Assembly (NCBI GenBank): GCA_028066055.1
Contig: JALCBY010000016.1
Span: 2,833 to 66,832, forward strand
Reading direction: 5' to 3'
DNA length: 64,000 nucleotides
Origin: Hyphomicrobiaceae bacterium
GTDB taxonomy: Bacteria > Pseudomonadota > Alphaproteobacteria > Rhizobiales > Methyloligellaceae
This document shows, piece by piece, positions 9,600 to 19,505 of this stretch (its first letter is position 1; the number at the start of each line of letters is the position of its first letter). Position numbers and translations under genes: made by a program. Under the pieces are notes generated by a model. It made no database searches and was not told the origin of the DNA. It saw only the letters and a list, made by a program, of their open reading frames with translations.

Positions 9600-11765
9600 C
9601 TATGACATAGAACTTGCCGCGACGGGCACCGCGGCGTTGTTTGCGACATCTGAAGGTACTTCGACCTCTTCAAGATCGAAATAGAATGTCGATCCTTTGC
9701 CGACTTCCGACTCGACATGGATTTCGCTGCCGTGCTTCTCGACGATCGCCTTCACGATCGACAGTCCGAGGCCGGTTCCGCGTCTTGCTCTCGAATCCGA
9801 CGCATCGATCTGGACGAAGCGCTCAAACAACTCGGACCGCTTCGCCGGTGGAATTCCACAACCCTTGTCGATCACAGCGCAGCGCAGGAGGCCATCTGAG
9901 CGCGCGATACGCACGACGACTCTTGAGTTTGGTGGAGAGAATTTTGCCGCGTTGGAGAGAAGGTTCGCGAAAACTTGCGTCAGGCGATTTGGGTCGATAC
10001 GGGCATGGGCCGTCCCGAGACACCCCTGAAGCTCGAACCTGACATTGTGCTCCGCCGCGTATGCGGCATTGTCTGTAATCGCGTCACGCGCAACGGCGAC
10101 AACGTCTTCCACGGCGAAGGCAAACTCCAGTTTGTTGGAGCGAATCTTTTCAACGTCGAGAATGTCATCCACCAATATGGCCAGGCGTTTGGAGTTGCGG
10201 ATTGCCACGTCAAGCAGTGATTTGGCCTCATCCGGCAAATCTCCGATCTCATTGGAATTCAAAAGAAGAAGCGAGCCAGACAGGGAGGTAAGCGGCGTTC
10301 GCAACTCATGGCTGACCACAGAAACGAACTCGTTTTTCACCCGCTCCATGCGCTTGGCTTCCGTAATGTCCTCATGGGTTGTTACCCAACCGCCGTTCGA
10401 AAGTGCCTGGCGGGAAATGCGAATGAAGCGGCCGTCAGTCAGTTCGTGAGTTACGGACGTGTCACCATGTTTGCGATTCCCCCAGGTCAAGCGGTCGTCG
10501 AGATAGGCTTGCGGATTGCCGTCAGCGTAAATCCCGTTGGCGATCCGTCTTTCGACGATCTGTTCTATCGTCATCCCTTGTGTGATCGCGTCGGGGGAAA
10601 GACCATACAGTGTCGCGTAGCGCTCGTTGAAAACGATCAGCCGGTTCTCCCGATCAAACACGCAGACGCCGTGCGACATGTTTTGCAACGCCACATTGAA
10701 ACGCTCGTTCTGATCCCGAAGTTCGTGCTCCGCCCTCATCCGGTGCTCATTTTCGACGGCGAGCTGTTCATGGGAGACCACCGTTTTTTTCAAGCGGTCA
10801 AGCATCGCGTTGAAGGCTTCCGCCAACTCCCGTAACTCTGCGGCGCCTTCGGCGGGAAGCCGCCGGTCGAGGTCGCGCGCCTCGCTTATTTTTCTGAGTT
10901 CCATTGTGAATTTCGAAAGCGGCCTGGTCGTCAGATAGGCAACAAAAAAAGTACCGGCTGCCAGAGCGGCCAGTGCAAGCAAAAGTGCGAAGTAGAGAGA
11001 TCTTTCCAAGGCATTGATGGGTGCCAGCGCGGAAGCCTTTGACTCGGCGACGACAATCGTGAGGTCATAGCCGGGTATCTCGGCGGTTGAGAGGACCCAG
11101 CCCGATATTTCCTTTGCATCGCGTTCGTAGCGACGCGCGAAGCTCAGGTCCGACGCGAAAACCTCACCCGCTTCATCGCGAATCAGCACTGCGTGTGTCC
11201 CAAGTGAAATGGACAGCAACTTTGAAAGTTCCGGTTTGCCGAGCTCAACGACAATCATGCCCTCGGCGAAGCCCTGGTAAACAACCGGTACAGCAAGGGT
11301 AGCACCGCGGGTATCTATGCGAACGTAGTCTTTCTTCTCCTCCATGAGCTTTTTGAGCCAAGGCGCGCCAACAAAGTTGCCGTTCAGCGCGTTCGATGCG
11401 ATCCGGCGTCCTCGATAGTCCGCAAAGCTGATCTTCTCGCCGGATCCCAGACCTGCAACCTGAAGCTGGTTGAAATAAAGCGGGATGTGTACCTCGCGCG
11501 CCTCCATATCGACGAGCCCGTTTATGACGAGGTCATTCGCCGCGACGCTTCTGGCAGCCTGCAGAACAGCGTTCAGTTTGGCCGCGGTTGCGTGTGCGCC
11601 GAACTCCGCATCCTGTTCCAGATTGGATTGCATCTGCTGCAGGAACGAGTGCTCAACCTTCATCTTGGTGACAAGACCGATGATGAGCATTGCCAGGGCG
11701 GCAACGGGCAGAACCCGGAGAAGTACGCGTGGCAGCAACCTTCCGGATTTTCTCCCGGCAATCAT
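9600..11765 (-). CDS. sensor histidine kinase (periplasmic sensor domain - HAMP - PAS - HisKA - HATPase_c)
   Basis: It has two TM segments flanking a ~230-aa periplasmic region. It has a HAMP-like [21 protein letters not shown] segment and a PAS-like [31 protein letters not shown] segment. The H-box is [13 protein letters not shown], and N/G boxes are NLLSNAAKF and [10 protein letters not shown]. Confidence 0.9.
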   Translation of the reverse strand: [721 protein letters not shown]

Positions 11766-12997
11766 TGGGTCGCCGGTTCCGCCATTGGCACGATGGCGCC
11801 GCGCTTGTCGTAGCGGCAGAGCCTGAAGTCAGACCGGTCGAGAGCATCGTGGCGGGAGGTGGTGAAGGGCGGATCGTAGGTCCGAACCAATCCCTCATAC
11901 CGGCCAAGCCGCTCAAGTGCGGATCGGACTTTTCCCCGGTCTGTGGTTCCCGCCTTTTGAATCGCAAGCTTTAGAATGTGAACGAGATCGTAGGCATGGG
12001 CCGAACCGACCGGTGAAACGATTTTCGCGTTTGATCCGCAAACCCCGAAATTTGCACAATAGGCCTTTTTGAATTTCTCCGCCTTGCGTGGAAAGGGAGG
12101 CTGGTAGAAGGAGTAAGTCTGGAGGAAGGTCAGTTCGACATTGTGAAACGCCTTCGGATCCTTTTTTACGATATTGGCGCCGGTAATGCCCCAGTGAGAT
12201 ATGATGGGGACCCGCTTGTTTGCCGGACGTGCGGCCATATCCCGGATGACTGTCAGTCCCTCCGGCGCGTTGGCGACGAGCATGATCACATCTGCGCCAG
12301 CATCAAGAAGGGCATTGATCTCGCGCGTGACACTTTTCTGGCTGGTATTGAACCATTGGATGCCCGCGGGCTGCATGCTCTTTTTTGACATGGCTGCGAC
12401 CATCGCCTTCCGGTTCGATCGACCCCACCCTGTTCGCCACAGCAGCAGTCCGGGTTTGCGGAAACCTCGTTCCAGCGCCTTGTCGATGAGATACCCGCCG
12501 GCAAACTGGTCGCGGGCCGAGACCCGAAAGACGAAATTGGGCTCAAATCCGTTGTCCACGATCGGCGTACCCGCGGCCCACGGCCCCAGGTAGATCAGTT
12601 TGTGTTCGTGGATCGCTTTGAGCTCCGCCAGGGCGACGGGCGTGTGTAGTCCGCCCAGAATGGCAACAAGGTTCTGATGCTCGGCGAAAGCGTGGATGTT
12701 GTCGACGCCGCGCGCCGGGATGCCGCGATGATCCTTGATTGAAAGCTTGAGCTTACGTCCCAGTACGCCACCCGATTGGTTGATTTCCTGAATGGCAATC
12801 TGAGCACCCCGTCTGATCGCTTCTCCCGACTGGCCGATTTCGCCGCTCATGGCCGCGTCAAGACCGATGACGATGGGGAGTTGACTTTGCGCTTCGGCAG
12901 CGCGTGCAAGCAAGAGAGCCCCTGCGGAGATGCAGAGTGCTAGGAGGGCAATCGCCGTATCGGTAAGGAAATCGTTGATGGATTTGGCCGGTGTCAT
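11762..12997 (-). CDS. periplasmic binding protein, Leu/Ile/Val-binding (type 1 PBP) family, embedded in the two-component operon
   Basis: The sequence PIVIGLDAAMSGEIGQSGEAIRRGAQIAIQEINQSGGVLGRKLKL... is typical of LivK-like PBPs. There is a signal/anchor segment (AIALLALCISAGALLLARAAEA). I prefer ATG 12997 (GAGGGG RBS) over the track start 13093, which removes the overlap with the Hpt gene. Its stop overlaps the kinase start (ATGA at 11762-11765). Confidence 0.85.
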   Translation of the reverse strand: MTPAKSINDFLTDTAIALLALCISAGALLLARAAEAQSQLPIVIGLDAAMSGEIGQSGEAIRRGAQIAIQEINQSGGVLGRKLKLSIKDHRGIPARGVDNIHAFAEHQNLVAILGGLHTPVALAELKAIHEHKLIYLGPWAAGTPIVDNGFEPNFVFRVSARDQFAGGYLIDKALERGFRKPGLLLWRTGWGRSNRKAMVAAMSKKSMQPAGIQWFNTSQKSVTREINALLDAGADVIMLVANAPEGLTVIRDMAARPANKRVPIISHWGITGANIVKKDPKAFHNVELTFLQTYSFYQPPFPRKAEKFKKAYCANFGVCGSNAKIVSPVGSAHAYDLVHILKLAIQKAGTTDRGKVRSALERLGRYEGLVRTYDPPFTTSRHDALDRSDFRLCRYDKRGAIVPMAEPATQ

Positions 12998-13061
12998 TGA
13001 ATATCCCCTCTTGAGTGGCACCCCGGAATCCGGCCCAGTTTCGAGGCGAGGTGCATCGGTT

Positions 13062-13451
13062 TCAGGTCTGATGCGTTCCTTTGAGTTGGGCAATGTCGAG
13101 CTGATACAGGGTTGAGTCCTCAGGTACCGTTCGACCCGCGACTACCTTCATCTCTTCCAGCAGACCGTAGAGTGACCGAATCTGCTTCTCATCGGGCTCC
13201 GTCTCCGCGGCCCGGCTTTCAATCAGCGCGTCTTCGAAATCTCGTGCTGCAGTGCTCAACGGCCCGAAACCGAGAGATCCGCTGGAACCGTTTATCTTAT
13301 GAACAATTTCAATGACTTTGCACGTCAGCGCGTTGTAGGAATCGCGTCTTAGGACAGCTTCCGCGAACGTCGCGGCCGCGGTCTCAACCTCGTCTGGCAA
13401 GGAGGCGCAATGTCTGGCCAGTATGGCGCGGAGCTGATCGTTTCCGGACAT
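13062..13451 (-). CDS. histidine phosphotransfer (Hpt) domain protein
   Basis: 129 aa. It carries the Hpt signature IVHKINGSSGSLGF (HxxKG-type phospho-His). Confidence 0.8.
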   Translation of the reverse strand: MSGNDQLRAILARHCASLPDEVETAAATFAEAVLRRDSYNALTCKVIEIVHKINGSSGSLGFGPLSTAARDFEDALIESRAAETEPDEKQIRSLYGLLEEMKVVAGRTVPEDSTLYQLDIAQLKGTHQT

Positions 13452-13461
13452 CCGTTGCTCG

Positions 13462-13848
13462 CTACACCTGCCCGTTCCAGATTGACTGTACCTGCTCGGG
13501 CAGCGTCACCGGATCGAACGGTTTGACAATAACCCCCGCACACCCCAGAGCGGTGTAGCGTTCCACTTCGCTTGGCTGGGCTTTCGCCGTCATGAAGATG
13601 ATCGGGGTGTTCTGAAGTTCGGGAAGTTCCCGTAGCGCCTTGAATGTTTCGATGCCGTCCATACCGGGCATCATCACGTCCAGCAGTATCAGATCGGGTC
13701 TGAAGCCGGGGGCCTTCCGTACCGCTTCCGTGCCGTCCACGCAGACATCGACATCAAAGCTGCCGAGCGTCTCCAGCCCAATCCGCGCGACCTCGCGAAT
13801 ATCGGGCTCATCCTCGACATAGGTGATGCGTTTCAGTGCTTTCGCCAT
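13462..13848 (-). CDS. single-domain response regulator (CheY-like receiver)
   Basis: 128 aa. It has the acidic pocket YVEDEPD, the phospho-acceptor context LILLDVMMPGMDG, and the T and K residues (FMTAK, VKPF). Confidence 0.9.
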   Translation of the reverse strand: MAKALKRITYVEDEPDIREVARIGLETLGSFDVDVCVDGTEAVRKAPGFRPDLILLDVMMPGMDGIETFKALRELPELQNTPIIFMTAKAQPSEVERYTALGCAGVIVKPFDPVTLPEQVQSIWNGQV

Positions 13849-14179: not shown

Positions 14180-15994
14180 ATGACGGCGGCGAAGCGGAAA
14201 GCCATTTCCGGCAACGAATCAACTGCGCGTTCGAAGAGCAAGACAAAATCTTCCAGTGAGGGCTGTGCGGAGGTCGCGCAGCGAATCCTTGTTGCCGAGG
14301 ACAGCCCGGTTACGCAGGACCTGCTGAAACTGGTCCTTGAACAGCGTGGGCATCAGGTCGACGTGGTCGCAGACGGTGAAGCGGCGATAAGAGCTCTGCA
14401 GGGCGGGTCCTACGATACGGTTCTGCTCGATTTTCACCTCCCCAAGGTCGACGGGCTGGAAGTGGCAACCCGGTTCCGCCGGGATAATGCCGGAAAGACC
14501 GCTGCACGGTTTGTTGCGATAACCGCGGATATCAAGGGTCTGCTCAGCCACTCGGCGAACTGCGAAAACTTCGACGAGGTGATCCCCAAGCCGCTGGACC
14601 TGCAGGAGGTTCTCGGCGTAATCGAGCGCGAGCAATCGGACGCGCTCAATGTTGCGAAGACAACCGTCCGCGAAGTCGGGGCCGGGAAAGCGAATGCGCC
14701 CGCAAGTGCGCTATCGGCGAAGTACGAGTATCTGCGTTGGCCGGAGGATTTCAATTCCGAGCGGCTCTCTGCGCGGGGAATGCATGCGAGCCTCTCTGAC
14801 GGTTCCTACGATGCCATCGTGCTGAATGAACCGGCCACCGTTCGTGATCTTTCGGTTATCTGGACCACAAAAACCCTGCACCTGTTGCCGATCATCGACA
14901 TGACGGGTTCGCTGGCGAAGCAGGCTGATGTTGACGGTACAGGTCTGAGCGTCGGAGAGACGGGCGAAATCGACCGTGTGATCGAGGCGTTCAAGTCCCG
15001 GCGGGCGGAATTGCACGACGACCTCGTCTTCAGTGATGATATCGGCGAGAAGCTGATCGGGCGCGTTTTCGTGAGCGGCGGGTCACTGACCGCACGTCAT
15101 GATCACACCAGCCGCGAACTGGTATCTTTCAATACGGTCCTTGATTTCCGCAGCGCCGACAAGGAAATCAGGGATCTCCTGACACGCGGGCTTCTGGCTC
15201 AGGACTTCTTTGATCGTTTCCATGTCTGCGACAGATGCGGGTCCTCGCACTTCAACGTTCGTGAGGAATGCGCCGACTGCGGGTCCTCTCATCTCGAGGA
15301 AGAGGCCTATCTGCATCATTTTAAATGCGCTTATCAGGGGCCGGAGTCGGATTTCCGGCAGGGCGATGATCTCGTTTGTCCGAAATGCCGGATGGAGCTT
15401 TCGCACTTCAGTGTGGACTATGACAAGCCGGGCTCGATGCTGCAGTGCGGAGGATGCGGACACGCCACGTCCGAGCCCGCAGTCGGGTTTGTCTGCATGG
15501 AGTGTGACGCGCACTATGACGGCGATTCGGTTCGGACCCGCGATGTCTTCTCATACGAAATGACGCCGCGCGGGATCGAGTTTGCGAAAGGCGGGCACGC
15601 GCTGCAGGACGGCGGCAATACGGCGCTGCGTTTTGCGGATCTGCCGCTTGCCCTGATCGTCGCGATCAATACCGAGCTGAAAAAACACGAGGCGGACGGG
15701 ACGCAATTTTCGCTGCTGAACATTTCATACCGGAATGGACGCGAGATCGAACAGGCAGAGGGCGTTCGGGCTTTTGAGAAATCGCGCGAGTTTCTGCTGG
15801 AGATTTTCCGCAATACGGTGCGCAAGGGGGATGACGTGGTCAAAGGCAACGCGTCCGACTTCATCCTGCTGAAACAAACGCCCAATGGCGAAGCGCGTGC
15901 CGGACTGGAAGATTTGAAGGCCGAAGCGTCCTCGTCCTTGCGCGTGGATCTCGGTTTGGAGTTTGAACTCTTCGGGCCTGAGGACTTCAGCTAG
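14180..15994 (+). CDS. response regulator: REC - linker region - multi-CxxC zinc-ribbon (TackOD1-like) - degenerate GGDEF-like domain
   Basis: REC: RILVAEDSPVTQ..VLLDFHLPKVDG..IPKPL. There are five CxxC pairs between 15227 and 15505 (CDRC, CADC, CPKC, CGGC, CMEC), as in the TackOD1 output domain. The C-terminus is GGDEF-like, with GNASDF in place of GGDEF and RKGD (RxxD) five residues upstream. I prefer ATG 14180 (the track gives TTG 14177). Confidence 0.8.
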   Translation: MTAAKRKAISGNESTARSKSKTKSSSEGCAEVAQRILVAEDSPVTQDLLKLVLEQRGHQVDVVADGEAAIRALQGGSYDTVLLDFHLPKVDGLEVATRFRRDNAGKTAARFVAITADIKGLLSHSANCENFDEVIPKPLDLQEVLGVIEREQSDALNVAKTTVREVGAGKANAPASALSAKYEYLRWPEDFNSERLSARGMHASLSDGSYDAIVLNEPATVRDLSVIWTTKTLHLLPIIDMTGSLAKQADVDGTGLSVGETGEIDRVIEAFKSRRAELHDDLVFSDDIGEKLIGRVFVSGGSLTARHDHTSRELVSFNTVLDFRSADKEIRDLLTRGLLAQDFFDRFHVCDRCGSSHFNVREECADCGSSHLEEEAYLHHFKCAYQGPESDFRQGDDLVCPKCRMELSHFSVDYDKPGSMLQCGGCGHATSEPAVGFVCMECDAHYDGDSVRTRDVFSYEMTPRGIEFAKGGHALQDGGNTALRFADLPLALIVAINTELKKHEADGTQFSLLNISYRNGREIEQAEGVRAFEKSREFLLEIFRNTVRKGDDVVKGNASDFILLKQTPNGEARAGLEDLKAEASSSLRVDLGLEFELFGPEDFS

Positions 15995-17262
15995 TGTGGG
16001 CGAGCGCGGCAGACGGGTATAACTTCCTCACCTCCCAGAGCTGGGTGGGGATCCTCGGCCTGTTCTGGTTCACCCTTGTTTTCGACATTCCGAGATACGC
16101 TCTGGCGTTCGTCGCAGCCGCATTTTTCGGGCGGGTTGGCGCAGCTCGAACCGATGTTCAGGGTTTTGCCGGACGGGTCAGCGTCGTCATCGCCGGCCAC
16201 AACGAGGCGGATGCAATCGAGCGTTGCGTCAAGTCGTTCCAGGAGCAGAGTCGGCCGCCGGACGAGATCGTTGTTGTCAGCGATGGCTCGACCGATGGCA
16301 TGGAGAACACCCTACGCGAATTGCAGCGGAGGGGTGCCGTGGATCAGGTGCATTGCACCCACCTGCGCGCCGGAAAATCCGCCGCGTGCAACCTTGGTGA
16401 GCGCTACGCGACCGGCGAAATCATCGTCATCGCGGACTGCGACTGCACCTACGAGCGACATGCTCTCAAGGAAATACTGGCGCCATTCGAAGACCCCGCG
16501 ATCGGTGCGGTCTCTGGCAACATCCTCGTCCGCAACGCCTCCGAAACCCTCATCGCAACCTTCACGGCGATCGAGTATCTGATCAGCATCTCTCTCGGCA
16601 AACAGGCGGCGGCTCTGACGGACCACGTGACCTGCGTTTCCGGTGCATTTGGAGCCTTTCGCAAGACGGCCTTGGATCAGGTTCAGGGCAACGACGTTGG
16701 CGGCGGCGAGGATCTCGACATGACCCTGCGGCTGCGCAAGGCGGGCTGGAAGATCGCCTTCGAGCCGGATTCAATTTGCTACACCGATACGCCCGCCACG
16801 TTCAGCGCGCTCGTGCGCCAGCGCTTCCGCTGGGAGCGCGACGCGGTGCGCATCCGGTACAGGAAGCACGCCGATCTGATGAACCCCTTCTCGGCGAACT
16901 TTCAGTTGCACGAACTCTATCACGAGGTTGAATTCCTGATCTTCCACATTCTCGGGGCGATTCTCCTTCCCGTTTATGTGATCTGGCTGTTTCTGGCCTA
17001 CGGGGAAATGGCGGTCGTCATTCTTCTGTCGGTTCAGATTGGCCTGTTCTCTCTGGACCTGCTCTCGTTCATTCTTGCCGCATGGGCGACGCCGAAAGCG
17101 AACAGTCTGGGACTGCTGCCCTACACCTTCGGCTACAGCTTCTTCAACGGCTTCGTCATGCGCAACGTCAGGCTCGCCGCCTACCTGCAGGAATGGCTCT
17201 TCAACGCTTCCGCGGAAGATGAGTATCTGCCGCAGAAGGTCAGACTTACACGGAGATGGTAA
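15994..17262 (+). CDS. processive family-2 glycosyltransferase (PgaC/NodC/cellulose-synthase-like membrane synthase)
   Basis: It has N- and C-terminal TM helices. The motifs are VVSDGSTDG (D), IADCDC (DxD), GGGEDLDMT (TED-like) and QRFRWERD (QxxRW). The GTG start overlaps the upstream stop by 1 nt (TAGTG). Confidence 0.9.
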   Translation: MWASAADGYNFLTSQSWVGILGLFWFTLVFDIPRYALAFVAAAFFGRVGAARTDVQGFAGRVSVVIAGHNEADAIERCVKSFQEQSRPPDEIVVVSDGSTDGMENTLRELQRRGAVDQVHCTHLRAGKSAACNLGERYATGEIIVIADCDCTYERHALKEILAPFEDPAIGAVSGNILVRNASETLIATFTAIEYLISISLGKQAAALTDHVTCVSGAFGAFRKTALDQVQGNDVGGGEDLDMTLRLRKAGWKIAFEPDSICYTDTPATFSALVRQRFRWERDAVRIRYRKHADLMNPFSANFQLHELYHEVEFLIFHILGAILLPVYVIWLFLAYGEMAVVILLSVQIGLFSLDLLSFILAAWATPKANSLGLLPYTFGYSFFNGFVMRNVRLAAYLQEWLFNASAEDEYLPQKVRLTRRW

Positions 17263-18263
17263 TGGTCAAGTCACTGAGGAAACGTCCACGGCCAGACGCG
17301 CTGAAAACGGAACAGCGCAAGGCAACGAACAGGACGGGGCGCCTCGTCTATCTGTTCATGCTCGGTGCCCTCGCGCTCGCAGGCGTCAATTTCCTGTTCG
17401 GCGATCTGGTCTTCTTGCGTGCCGACGGCCTCGTTCTGCGCGACAAGACGACGGTCTCGACGACCTATCTGGCGCGTGTGGAAAGCGTCGATGTCGAGCC
17501 GGGGCAGATGGTGTCGGCGGGAAGCCCCATACTGCACGTCCAGTCGTCGGAAATTCTGGAGCGGCTGGCGGAACTCTCCTCAAAGAAGGCTTCGCTGACA
17601 GCCCAGGCCGCGGAGTTCAAGATGCGGGCGGCGAAGGCTACCAGTCTGCTTCCGCTGGCGAAGAAGCGCGAAAGCGAATCGGCGAAGATGCTGGAAAAGG
17701 TCGGCGATCTGTCCGGACGGAATGTTCTCACATTGGCGCAGTATGGCGACGCCCTGCGTGCACGCTTCGATGCGCGGCAGTCGTTCGTTGAGATCGAGGC
17801 CCAGGAGCGCGCGCTCAAGGGAGAGCTCGAAGCCATTGATTCAGCGCGGGACGATGCGGATAAGGCGCTCGACCGGCTGCGCGATCACTATGCCGATGGC
17901 GTTGTCCAGGCGCCGGTGGACGGTGCGATCGGAACGTCGGTTCCGTCCCGCGGTGACGTCTACCGTCCCGGCGAGACCATTCTCGAAATCTATTCCGGCA
18001 AGGCGTATGTCCTAGCATATCTGCCGCGCCGTTATCTTTTTGGGGTAAAGGTGGGAACCGAGGTTAAGGTCAAAAGCGGCCGCCACAAGGCGACGGGCGT
18101 CATTTCCGATATTCTTCCCGTGACGGCTGCCCTGCCGAACGAATTCCAGAACAGTTTCAAACCGCGGGACCGCAACCAGCTGGCGCGGATCACATTCGAC
18201 AATCCGACTTCATTCCCGCTGCATGAGAAGGTTTCGATCGGTCTGGATTACGATCTGTTCTAG
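17256..18263 (+). CDS. HlyD-family periplasmic adaptor-like protein partnered with the GT2 synthase
   Basis: It has an N-terminal TM (LVYLFMLGALALAGVNFLF), a lipoyl-like VESVDVEPGQMVSAGSPILHVQS segment, a coiled coil, then VVQAPVDGAIGT..GETILEIY. The start is ATG 17256 or ATG 17262; the latter overlaps the GT2 stop (TAATG). Confidence 0.85.
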   Translation: MVMVKSLRKRPRPDALKTEQRKATNRTGRLVYLFMLGALALAGVNFLFGDLVFLRADGLVLRDKTTVSTTYLARVESVDVEPGQMVSAGSPILHVQSSEILERLAELSSKKASLTAQAAEFKMRAAKATSLLPLAKKRESESAKMLEKVGDLSGRNVLTLAQYGDALRARFDARQSFVEIEAQERALKGELEAIDSARDDADKALDRLRDHYADGVVQAPVDGAIGTSVPSRGDVYRPGETILEIYSGKAYVLAYLPRRYLFGVKVGTEVKVKSGRHKATGVISDILPVTAALPNEFQNSFKPRDRNQLARITFDNPTSFPLHEKVSIGLDYDLF

Positions 18264-18281: not shown

Positions 18282-19505
18282 TCAGGCCGATGCGCGGGAT
18301 GGAACCGCAGCACTTTGCTGTGCGGCCTCCGGCAGCTCGAAGTAGAATACCGACCCCTTGCCCACTTCGGACTCAACGCCGATCCGGCCGTCATGTTGTT
18401 CGATGATGGATTTGCTGACGCTCAGACCGAGACCGGTGCCCTGTTTGTTGCGACCGGAACTATCCTCGACTTGAACGAACTTCTCGAACACCTTCCCCTG
18501 CTGTTCGGCCGGAATGCCCGGTCCGTGATCTCGCACCGACACCCGAATGCGTCCCTCATGCCGTTCGACGATCACGTCGACGGCGCGGCCTTCGGGCGAA
18601 AATTTGGCGGCGTTGGAGAGAAAGTTCGTGAGCACCTGTTCCAGTCTTTGCGCATCGGCATGCACATGGGCTTCGCCGAGCCGATCGTCCAGGCGGAACC
18701 AGACACCATGTTCTGCCGCATAGGGTTTGTTGTTCTCGATTGCCGTCTTCGCGAGCCCGACAATCTCGGTCTTTGCGAGGTCGAGCTGCATTTTTCCTGC
18801 CTCGGCCTTTCCTAGATCCAGCAGGTCGTTGACCATCGACTTCAGCTTCTCCGCGTTCCGCTGCGCGACGTCGAACAGTGCCGTGGCATTTGCGGGCAGT
18901 GCCTTTCCGAGGCCATGCCGGATCAGACTGAGCGAACCGAGAAGCGATGTGAGCGGCGTCCTGAATTCGTGGACAACCATCGAGAGCGCGTCCGATACAG
19001 GGTTCTTCTTTTCCGTTTCCTGCCGTGCTTCCGGTCTGCGTTGCGGCGCGGCTTTGCGTTTCGGAGCGAAAAACGTTTTGAACCTGTCGGCAAACCCTCT
19101 TCGCGGCTCTTTCTGGCGGATGGACGCTTTGTCGATGATCGAGGAGTGTTCTCCGCTTGCCTTGGAGCCGATGGGATCGATCAGGAGGCCTTCATCCTGC
19201 GAATTGGTCAGGAACTCGACGCCAGCCATGTGCTTGTCGCGCCAAACGATACGCCCGGCAATGACCTTGTCGAATCCCTCCGGCAACAGGTGAATAATCT
19301 CCGGCAGATCGTCGAGAGCATTGGTGACGATCCGGCAACCGGTGCGCGATACCTCGCGGATAATGCACTTCACCTCATATTTTTCATCAACGTCCGACGC
19401 AAACGCATGAATCGCGGTTTTTCTGCGACGCTCACCTCGGGCGCTGGACTCAGCGACCGTCGGATCGACTGATTCTGGAGACTTGGCGTGGCCCAACTGT
19501 CTCAT
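18282..19505 (-). CDS. PilZ domain-containing histidine kinase (PilZ - HisKA - HATPase_c, cytoplasmic)
   Basis: The N-terminus has PilZ-type motifs RGERR (RxxxR) and EVSRTG ((D/N)xSxxG-like), then GRIVWRDKHMAGVEFL. The H-box is MVVHEFRTPLTS, and the N/G boxes are NFLSNAAKF and GTGLGLSVSK. I saw no TM helices. Confidence 0.8.
   Translation of the reverse strand: MRQLGHAKSPESVDPTVAESSARGERRRKTAIHAFASDVDEKYEVKCIIREVSRTGCRIVTNALDDLPEIIHLLPEGFDKVIAGRIVWRDKHMAGVEFLTNSQDEGLLIDPIGSKASGEHSSIIDKASIRQKEPRRGFADRFKTFFAPKRKAAPQRRPEARQETEKKNPVSDALSMVVHEFRTPLTSLLGSLSLIRHGLGKALPANATALFDVAQRNAEKLKSMVNDLLDLGKAEAGKMQLDLAKTEIVGLAKTAIENNKPYAAEHGVWFRLDDRLGEAHVHADAQRLEQVLTNFLSNAAKFSPEGRAVDVIVERHEGRIRVSVRDHGPGIPAEQQGKVFEKFVQVEDSSGRNKQGTGLGLSVSKSIIEQHDGRIGVESEVGKGSVFYFELPEAAQQSAAVPSRASA

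Follow-up and report, generated by a model that had tools for sequence, protein, structure and literature searches.

Analysis of the 64,000-nucleotide stretch of Hyphomicrobiaceae DNA considered here (hereafter, the window) identified an operon of three genes at positions 14180-18263, encoding a receiver-bearing regulator, a membrane glycosyltransferase of family 2 (GT2) and a HlyD-type periplasmic adaptor. Pairwise and profile comparisons show these to be colinear homologs of mxdA, mxdB and mxdC of Shewanella oneidensis, and it is likely that the operon constitutes an Mxd-type synthase-dependent exopolysaccharide system in which an MxdA-like subunit switches the synthase post-translationally. 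The sequence-only reading made previously on this DNA had proposed a polysaccharide machine composed of a synthase and an adaptor, with a dedicated cytoplasmic regulator encoded first, and the domain assignments reported below uphold that proposal; its claim that the combination is uncharacterised does not stand, given that mxdA-mxdB-mxdC are colinear homologs. The genes of the operon are the following:

14180..15994, + strand: mxdA-like regulator gene (open reading frame; deposited protein 100% identical, 604 aa; Pfam; MxdA homology)
15994..17262, + strand: mxdB-like membrane GT2 synthase gene (422 aa, GTG start; Pfam, NCBIfam, MxdB homology)
17256..18263, + strand: mxdC-like HlyD-type periplasmic adaptor gene (335 aa; Pfam, MxdC profile match)

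The proteins predicted from the window are 100% identical to those deposited for the source, a Hyphomicrobiaceae metagenome-assembled genome. The lead to Mxd was a tblastn match on a plasmid, to a Plesiomonas operon annotated as "diguanylate cyclase – glycosyltransferase – HlyD", whose first protein carries TackOD1 (E=1.7e-61) and GGDEF (41.6 bits) matches and has relatives widespread in Vibrio, Photobacterium, Aliivibrio and Shewanella. S. oneidensis MxdA (SO_4180, P0510, AAN57153.1) presents TackOD1 at aa 117-301 (E=4.7e-71) and a GGDEF score of 22.5 bits, just under the Pfam cut-off. The window regulator aligns to MxdA with a pairwise E=8e-22, and the profiles of their zinc-ribbon cores match with 99.9% probability (E=1.6e-34). 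The GT2 aligns to MxdB with E=7e-47 and 31% identity over 378 aa, and the adaptor aligns to MxdC along its full length with a pairwise E=5e-4 and a profile probability of 98.9% (E=2.9e-17, 290 columns). In strain MR-1, mxdA is followed by mxdB (the GT2 gene, overlapping by 4 nt), mxdC (overlapping by 1 nt) and mxdD (SO_4180-SO_4177), and gene order and overlapping junctions are alike in MR-1, S. khirikhana, V. parahaemolyticus and Plesiomonas.

Both junctions in the window also consist of overlapping stop and start codons, exactly as had been read from the sequence. At the regulator/GT2 junction, TAGTG at 15992-15996, the TAG of the regulator and the GTG start of the GT2 share one nucleotide, and at the GT2/adaptor junction, ATGGTAATG at 17256-17264, the overlap is of 7 nt, or of 1 nt if the second ATG is used. 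The adaptor may start at ATG 17256 (335 aa) or at ATG 17262 (333 aa), the latter chosen by an independent gene call, and the GT2 stop is overlapped in both cases. For the regulator, TTG 14177 (605 aa) and ATG 14180 (604 aa) are both in frame; the deposited protein uses the ATG, in agreement with the start coordinate of the sequence-only reading. A scan for promoters and terminators returned sites no more numerous than in shuffled sequence, and hence no claim on either is made for the operon.

In Shewanella, the mxdABCD genes are needed for turning a monolayer into a three-dimensional biofilm and for aggregation (PMC3691769), with MxdB being the presumed polysaccharide synthase and MxdC resembling an efflux-pump component (PMC3691769; PMC3409153). 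MxdA possesses a degenerate GGDEF domain, and both the cyclase PdgA and CheY3 interact with it. Biofilm formation requires phospho-mimetic CheY3 throughout, and heterologous CheY proteins restore biofilm only when they bind MxdA (PMC7666153; PMC11395469). Binding of cyclic di-GMP (c-di-GMP) by MxdA is cited second-hand, through the same two papers.

To assess conservation, one genome per species was scanned, yielding 80 loci with relatives of the regulator that span the Hyphomicrobiales, the Rhodobacterales, some Rhodospirillales and the gammaproteobacterium Microbulbifer. The order regulator-GT2-adaptor is kept in about 65 of these 80 species loci, in line with the co-conservation anticipated for the three genes, and the regulator and GT2 genes overlap in 50 of the 53 loci where the junction could be assessed (1 nt in 32 loci, 4 nt in 16 and other lengths in 2). 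The operon order and its overlapping junctions are thus conserved across Alpha- and Gammaproteobacteria. The operon is also retained with regulators that have no receiver (REC) domain, in Microbulbifer, Bosea, Rhodoblastus and Aminobacter and with the gammaproteobacterial MxdA, and therefore TackOD1 and the degenerate GGDEF domain form the core of the regulator, with REC as an added input. Several variants were observed among the loci. Nine loci have no GT2 gene (L020, L022, L025, L026, L031, L032, L049, L063 and L066; e.g. L066:7911-10826), and in L066 the next genes after the regulator and the adaptor encode a porin-like protein, GlmU and GlmS. In Microbulbifer okhotskensis (L067:5164-9284) the GT2 and adaptor genes are followed by a gap and then by a gene for a REC-less TackOD1 protein; two other Microbulbifer species present the usual operon order. 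Broken or fused reading frames of the regulator and/or the GT2 in L068, L069, L071 and L046 suggest frameshifts, assembly errors or decaying operon copies.

The GT2 presents the complete motif set of processive synthases, VSDGS (aa 95-99; 16276-16290), DCD (aa 148-150; 16435-16443), GED (aa 238-240; 16705-16713) and QRFRW (aa 276-280; 16819-16833), together with the transmembrane segments expected from its previous description as a processive-type GT2, and the 422-aa protein ends right after a C-terminal transmembrane bundle, with no extra domain. It matches Glyco_tranf_2_3 (E=6.4e-34) and Chitin_synth_2 (44 bits versus a cut-off of 27) in Pfam, and its best score against curated families is for PgaC/IcaA (145 bits versus a cut-off of 422), with 78 bits for NodC (cut-off 550) and about 30 bits for CelA. 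Orthology to PgaC, NodC or cellulose synthase was considered and rejected on account of these scores, which fall far under the equivalog cut-offs. Motifs and family scores therefore place the GT2, with its complete D, DxD, ED and QxxRW set, closest to the processive PgaC/HAS/NodC/chitin-synthase branch, with no named ortholog. The adaptor, already recognized as a single-pass HlyD-type protein, has its one transmembrane segment at aa 30-48 and matches HlyD_3 (E=3e-10, 41.2 bits versus 22.2) and HlyD_D23 (E=7e-8, 32.4 bits versus 30); a transmembrane anchor, barrel-sandwich and beta-barrel regions and a predicted long coiled-coil hairpin assign it by sequence to the HlyD/membrane-fusion family. 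Its cytoplasmic tail of some 28 aa (window 17256-17350) contains a basic motif, KRPRPD (L.KRPRPD...R......GR.iYL), that is kept in 65 alphaproteobacterial orthologs, and this tail may be where the regulator or the GT2 docks.

The same data could be taken to indicate that the GT2 makes short oligosaccharides, or else a glycoconjugate of the membrane or periplasm, as a NodC-like or glycolipid-type enzyme, and that the adaptor works in an efflux-type exporter. The enzyme is small and far from the PgaC and NodC cut-offs, its best solved relative by sequence is the archaeal GT2 6yv7, of non-processive type, followed by hyaluronan synthases, no gene for outer-membrane export was found in the locus, and the Mxd product itself is called merely 'putative' (PMC7666153; PMC3691769; PMC3409153). 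We nonetheless regard this alternative as unlikely: all four processive-synthase motifs are present, QRFRW included, and are followed by the C-terminal transmembrane bundle, the pairing of a GT2 with a membrane-fusion protein mirrors BgsA/BgsB/TolC (PMC13438883), and mxd mutants lose aggregation and three-dimensional biofilm, which is a matrix phenotype (PMC3691769).

The regulator is the component that sets this operon apart, and it can be divided into four regions:

14285..14620, + strand: receiver (REC) domain (aa 37-148; Pfam Response_reg E=1.6e-16; phospho-acceptor set intact)
14714..15034, + strand: conserved alpha/beta region, unassigned (aa 180-286; structure model)
15035..15562, + strand: TackOD1 domain (aa 287-462; Pfam PF18551 E=8.7e-47)
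15647..15973, + strand: truncated, catalytically degenerate GGDEF-fold domain (Foldseek; motif register; an ortholog passes Pfam)

The receiver scores 60.9 bits against a PF00072 cut-off of 30.2, residues E41, D42, D85, T116 and K138 do not vary among 22 homologs, and 60 of 71 alphaproteobacterial members align at D85 and K138. Between REC and the Pfam start of TackOD1 lie about 137 aa, a shorter stretch than the roughly 190 aa previously estimated for a middle region that does remain unassigned, with no Pfam match at E<=10. The structure model predicts a disordered linker at aa 153-179 and an alpha/beta fold at aa 180-286; by eye, this fold gave the impression of a pseudo-receiver, and that assignment was dropped and is not claimed because hhalign against the REC profile returned a probability below 2%. 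The AlphaFold model of the full-length regulator (pLDDT 77.5) has full-length PleD (REC-REC'-GGDEF) as its best structural match (E about 6e-12).

TackOD1 is detected with 159.5 bits against a cut-off of 32, confirming the identity proposed for the cysteine cluster. The cluster spans 15227-15505, as had been read, and includes five CxxC pairs (C351/354, C365/368, C401/404, C424/427 and C440/443) and H381xxC384, adding up to 12 ligands, sufficient for three predicted zinc sites; this arrangement agrees with how the domain was defined (PMC5847659). The CxxC/HxxC residues are invariant across the 22 homologs, and 12 of 12 ligands are kept in 71 alphaproteobacterial and 116 gammaproteobacterial relatives. 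The family is large, with 2,217 clusters at 50% identity that fall mainly into two classes of length, REC-bearing and REC-less, and databases already label such proteins "TackOD1 domain-containing". The only paper mentioning TackOD1 that a literature search found was the one defining it. The domain is not, however, devoid of functional context, as the sequence-only reading had held, since MxdA is a protein made of TackOD1 and a degenerate GGDEF domain.

Zinc ribbons with multiple cysteines are frequently nucleic-acid binders, and a response regulator encoded together with its likely targets could be a transcription factor, with the ribbons and the preceding helical segment binding the promoter and activating the operon upon REC phosphorylation and with the GT2 and adaptor genes as its regulon. 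The insert of PriA helicase has a similar cysteine arrangement, archaeal proteins with a REC-winged helix-turn-helix-TackOD1 layout have been described (PMC5847659), and some relatives show weak Pfam matches to TFIIB-type and double zinc ribbons. The Pfam search of the regulator, however, found no helix-turn-helix or other DNA-binding family, and a degenerate GGDEF domain at the C-terminus is typical of receptor or scaffold proteins. In Shewanella, mxd transcription is controlled by ArcA and UvrY, with MxdA not reported as a controller (PMC3691769), and the papers on MxdA present it as an effector of c-di-GMP, with CheY3 and a cyclase as binding partners (PMC7666153; PMC11395469). The overlap of regulator and GT2 genes in 50 of 53 loci and the retention of the operon in REC-less forms also fit a stoichiometric subunit better, and we consider a DNA-binding role quite unlikely.

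The C-terminus of the regulator had been described as GGDEF-like, and this holds at the level of the fold and not at that of sequence detection. The last 140 aa have no Pfam match at E<=10, and a profile built from 15 family sequences finds no GGDEF match among PDB sequences, returning only spurious RF1 and designed-TIM matches. By contrast, the top 50 Foldseek matches of the isolated domain model (pLDDT 82.9) are all GGDEF domains, with E=7.5e-6 to 1.7e-3, a TM-score of about 0.63, 13-19% identity and about 113 aligned columns versus targets of about 160 residues, and the C-terminal domain of the Plesiomonas ortholog passes Pfam GGDEF (41.6 bits versus a cut-off of 23.8). At 15821-15862 the domain reads RKGD-DVVKG-NASDF, which places an RxxD in the register of the inhibitory site (I-site) and NASDF at the GG[DE]EF position, where MxdA reads TRDGL and Plesiomonas RQDVL. 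Compared with GGDEF diguanylate cyclases (PF00990), the domain thus retains the fold and lacks both the motif and a Pfam match. The model depicts it as a truncated GGDEF fold, catalytically dead by motif, and as a degenerate relative of that fold outside the enzyme family. An active-cyclase reading of the regulator was rejected on the basis of NASDF and of the missing Pfam match. MxdA (P0510) also contains the string NVDEF at 358-362, which falls in the first-strand region of the domain; its structural GGDEF position is TRDGL at 396-400, after RVTD at 387-390, as given by the RxxD+5 register and by the Pfam/hhalign alignment.

The in-register RxxD is found in 113 of 116 REC-less gammaproteobacterial members and only in about 13 of 71 alphaproteobacterial ones, all of them in the clade of the window. 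Given its presence in REC-less gammaproteobacteria and its rarity in fused alphaproteobacterial forms, phosphorylation appears, as far as motif patterns can tell, to have replaced c-di-GMP binding in most REC-fused members, and c-di-GMP binding is not family-wide, since most of these lack the RxxD. NCBI often names gammaproteobacterial MxdA-type orthologs (in Vibrio, Photobacterium, Plesiomonas and Shewanella) 'diguanylate cyclase', examples being L081:4557-5912 (Plesiomonas), L087:5001-6356 (V. parahaemolyticus) and P0392-P0509; this is probably a systematic misannotation, because the GG[DE]EF position is degenerate (e.g. RQDVL, TRDGL). That the regulator is an enzyme or modulator of the c-di-GMP pool rather than a synthase subunit is very improbable, for although such names, the GGDEF fold and a reported effect of MxdA on c-di-GMP levels would favor it, the motif is degenerate in window, MxdA and Plesiomonas proteins alike, the domain is truncated and in the window fails Pfam GGDEF, and the papers call MxdA an effector (PMC7666153; PMC11395469) and its influence on c-di-GMP 'indirect' (PMC3691769; PMC3409153).

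The operon is flanked in the window by genes for signal transduction:

9600-11765, - strand: HAMP-PAS-HisKA-HATPase kinase (Pfam; same strand as REC/Hpt)
11762-13093, - strand: periplasmic binding protein (Pfam; same strand as REC/Hpt)
13062..13451, - strand: Hpt phosphotransfer protein, 129 aa (Pfam Hpt E=5.2e-8)
13462..13848, - strand: stand-alone receiver, 128 aa, divergent (Pfam E=1.2e-26; candidate relay intermediate)
18282..19505, - strand: PilZ-HisKA-HATPase histidine kinase, convergent, 18 bp downstream of the operon (Pfam PilZ E=1.8e-6)

Neighbouring genes were counted through targeted homology searches in an 8-kb range around the operon; de novo single-linkage clustering of the open reading frames in the loci was dropped, as it was polluted by overlapping spurious frames in this high-GC DNA. 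Within 8 kb of the operon, a stand-alone REC is encoded in at least 37 loci, an Hpt in at least 39 and a kinase in at least 45. The recurrence of these genes suggests a split, operon-linked phosphorelay running from kinase to REC to Hpt to fused REC, with partners assigned by gene neighbourhood. The periplasmic binding protein recurs in 1 other locus and the sensor part of the HAMP-PAS kinase in 3, and their association with the operon is lineage-specific. In Roseibium aggregatum (L082:1522-14250) the operon resides on a 349-kb plasmid in a compact signalling island, flanked by genes for a MASE1-CHASE-PAS hybrid kinase, a stand-alone REC and two Hpt proteins; the island also encodes a REC-GGDEF cyclase whose GGDEF match in Pfam is intact. 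In the window, a regular-expression scan for GG[DE]EF over all open reading frames returned no cyclase gene.

The kinase downstream of the operon has its N-terminal PilZ domain (28.7 bits versus a cut-off of 22.5) as sole sensor domain. It carries the motifs RGERR (RxxxR) and EVSRTG ((D/E)xSxxG, with E or D as first residue), and R27, S53 and G56 are invariant in five orthologs, all of which adjoin the operon (L002:8092-9300, L006:5705-6811, L007:4427-5515, L045:4426-5514 and L068:6646-7836). Judging by these motifs, it is possible that the protein is a kinase directly gated by c-di-GMP and a candidate input to the system, and it occurs only in the clade whose regulator retains RxxD. The earlier contrast between this operon and synthases gated by PilZ or GIL domains is hence doubtful, as the regulator has a degenerate-GGDEF/I-site module like GIL or PelD, its RKGD is in register and a PilZ-kinase adjoins the operon. 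With RKGD in register and the PilZ-kinase 18 bp downstream, c-di-GMP probably remains an input to the window system, and the regulator probably integrates both phosphorylation and c-di-GMP signals.

In the mechanism we propose for the Mxd-type system, the MxdB-like GT2 would polymerise a sugar nucleotide and thread the chain across the inner membrane, as expected from its family, and the MxdC-like adaptor would bridge the periplasm and probably connect to a TolC-type channel whose gene lies elsewhere, following the model put forward for BgsA-BgsB-TolC. The MxdA-like protein would be a stoichiometric cytoplasmic regulatory subunit turning the synthase on post-translationally, and we infer such gating for the window and Shewanella alike. 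In Shewanella the reported inputs to the MxdA subunit, both in trans, are c-di-GMP and phospho-CheY3. In the window the receiver, fused in cis, would be phosphorylated by one or more kinases through the stand-alone REC and then the Hpt, and c-di-GMP could still reach the system both through the RKGD site of the degenerate GGDEF domain and through the neighbouring PilZ-kinase. Contact with the membrane machine would be made by TackOD1, possibly at the cytoplasmic face of the GT2 or at the basic tail of the adaptor.

Several observations weigh against assigning the window operon to an Mxd-type system of this kind. The source is a metagenome-assembled genome and the system is known here from sequence alone, with relay partners assigned solely by gene neighbourhood. 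The nine GT2-less loci, which are Rhodomicrobium-like, have the adaptor gene directly after the regulator gene and carry a GT2 gene neither in between nor anywhere within 8 kb. A gene for an outer-membrane component was not found at the locus, nor was a counterpart of mxdD, which encodes a small transmembrane protein, the next gene being the convergent kinase after 18 bp; V. parahaemolyticus and Plesiomonas likewise have no mxdD, which thus lies outside the conserved core. The middle region of the regulator matches neither the N-terminal domain of MxdA nor the REC profile (hhalign probability below 2%), and the alignment of alpha- and gammaproteobacterial C-terminal domains is weak (E=1.3e-3, probability 18.6%), if still colinear, with RKGD opposite RVTD of MxdA. 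RxxD is missing from about 58 of 71 alphaproteobacterial members and from most REC-fused ones. In Shewanella itself, post-translational activation by MxdA is called 'probable' and, as stated above, the product is 'putative'.

A broader reading can be put forward tentatively, and we hold it to be somewhat doubtful: TackOD1 and a dead GGDEF domain could form a general coincidence adaptor that docks on envelope-spanning polymer machines via its zinc ribbons and is switched by a phosphorylated receiver and c-di-GMP. The receiver would be wired in trans, as with CheY3-P in Shewanella, or in cis, as in the alphaproteobacterial fusion, and the c-di-GMP I-site would become dispensable once a receiver is fused, hence its loss. 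The clade of the window would represent an intermediate in which both inputs persist and the PilZ-kinase is added, with two actions for c-di-GMP, one directly on the subunit and one via phosphorylation. If true, this reading would provide the first mechanistic role for TackOD1, and TackOD1 proteins of thaumarchaeal type IV pilus loci would be expected to have it as well.

The machine is not categorically new, because its core is known genetically as Mxd in Shewanella. A literature search for a synthase combined with a HlyD protein and a response regulator gave no specific result. Novelty lies in the fusion of REC to an MxdA-like core, in the relay and PilZ-kinase associated with it, and in how the loss of RxxD is distributed. 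The REC fusion constitutes a "Rosetta-stone" counterpart, that is, independent evolutionary evidence for the unusual claim that CheY3-P, a phosphorylated CheY-type receiver, drives matrix production by acting directly on MxdA. The homology to MxdA ties TackOD1, so far described only bioinformatically, to a protein studied genetically and biochemically. The retention of RxxD in REC-less forms and its loss in most REC-fused ones provide a testable hypothesis of an exchange between c-di-GMP and phosphorylation as inputs. Among marine and soil Hyphomicrobiales and Rhodobacterales, the Mxd-type system occurs widely.

Among known systems, the mixed-linkage beta-glucan system BgsA/BgsB of Sinorhizobium meliloti also combines a GT2 synthase with a membrane-fusion-type protein and is under c-di-GMP control; TolC is essential for this BgsBA glucan, and a tripartite BgsA-BgsB-TolC complex has been proposed (PMC13438883). 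Compared by description, BgsA senses c-di-GMP through its own C-terminal region, whereas the window GT2 has no such region, is nearer to PgaC/HAS/NodC than to cellulose-synthase-like enzymes and is regulated by a separate MxdA-like protein. PelD of Pseudomonas resembles the regulator in being the cytoplasmic regulatory part of a synthase with a catalytically dead GGDEF-type domain and an I-site-like RxxD. BcsE, with its GIL domain, plays a comparable cytoplasmic regulatory part in enterobacterial cellulose synthesis as a degenerate-GGDEF c-di-GMP receptor with RxGD. PelD and BcsE both lack TackOD1 zinc ribbons and an active receiver, their sequence relationship to the regulator is not detectable, and c-di-GMP binding by RKGD is putative. 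In alginate synthesis, the GT2 polymerase Alg8 is paired with a membrane-fusion-type partner, Alg44, and c-di-GMP is sensed outside the GT2, by a PilZ sensor fused to the adaptor itself; by description, the window adaptor differs in having a short basic tail, with the sensor as a separate protein. PleD-type response regulators, whose structures match the full-length model best (E about 6e-12 to 3e-10), share the N-to-C logic of a phosphorylatable REC controlling a GGDEF-fold output. PleD differs in being an active cyclase with GGEEF, whereas the window domain is truncated, has lost the motif and is preceded by an inserted 176-aa TackOD1, and the second 'adaptor' region of the window regulator is not demonstrably REC-like. 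The closest counterpart is Mxd of Shewanella, in which MxdA combines TackOD1 with a degenerate GGDEF domain, MxdB is a GT2, MxdC is a membrane-fusion protein and the junctions are coupled. RxxD lies 5 residues ahead of the degenerate motif in both MxdA and the window regulator, and in both cases the MxdA core is partnered by a receiver, CheY3-P in trans in Shewanella and the fused REC in the window. The window system differs in the N-terminal REC and the different region before TackOD1, in a locus without mxdD and with REC, Hpt, kinase and PilZ-kinase genes nearby, in the low identity (22-31%) and in the loss of RxxD by most alphaproteobacterial members. Overall, it is a variant of a known but poorly understood system.

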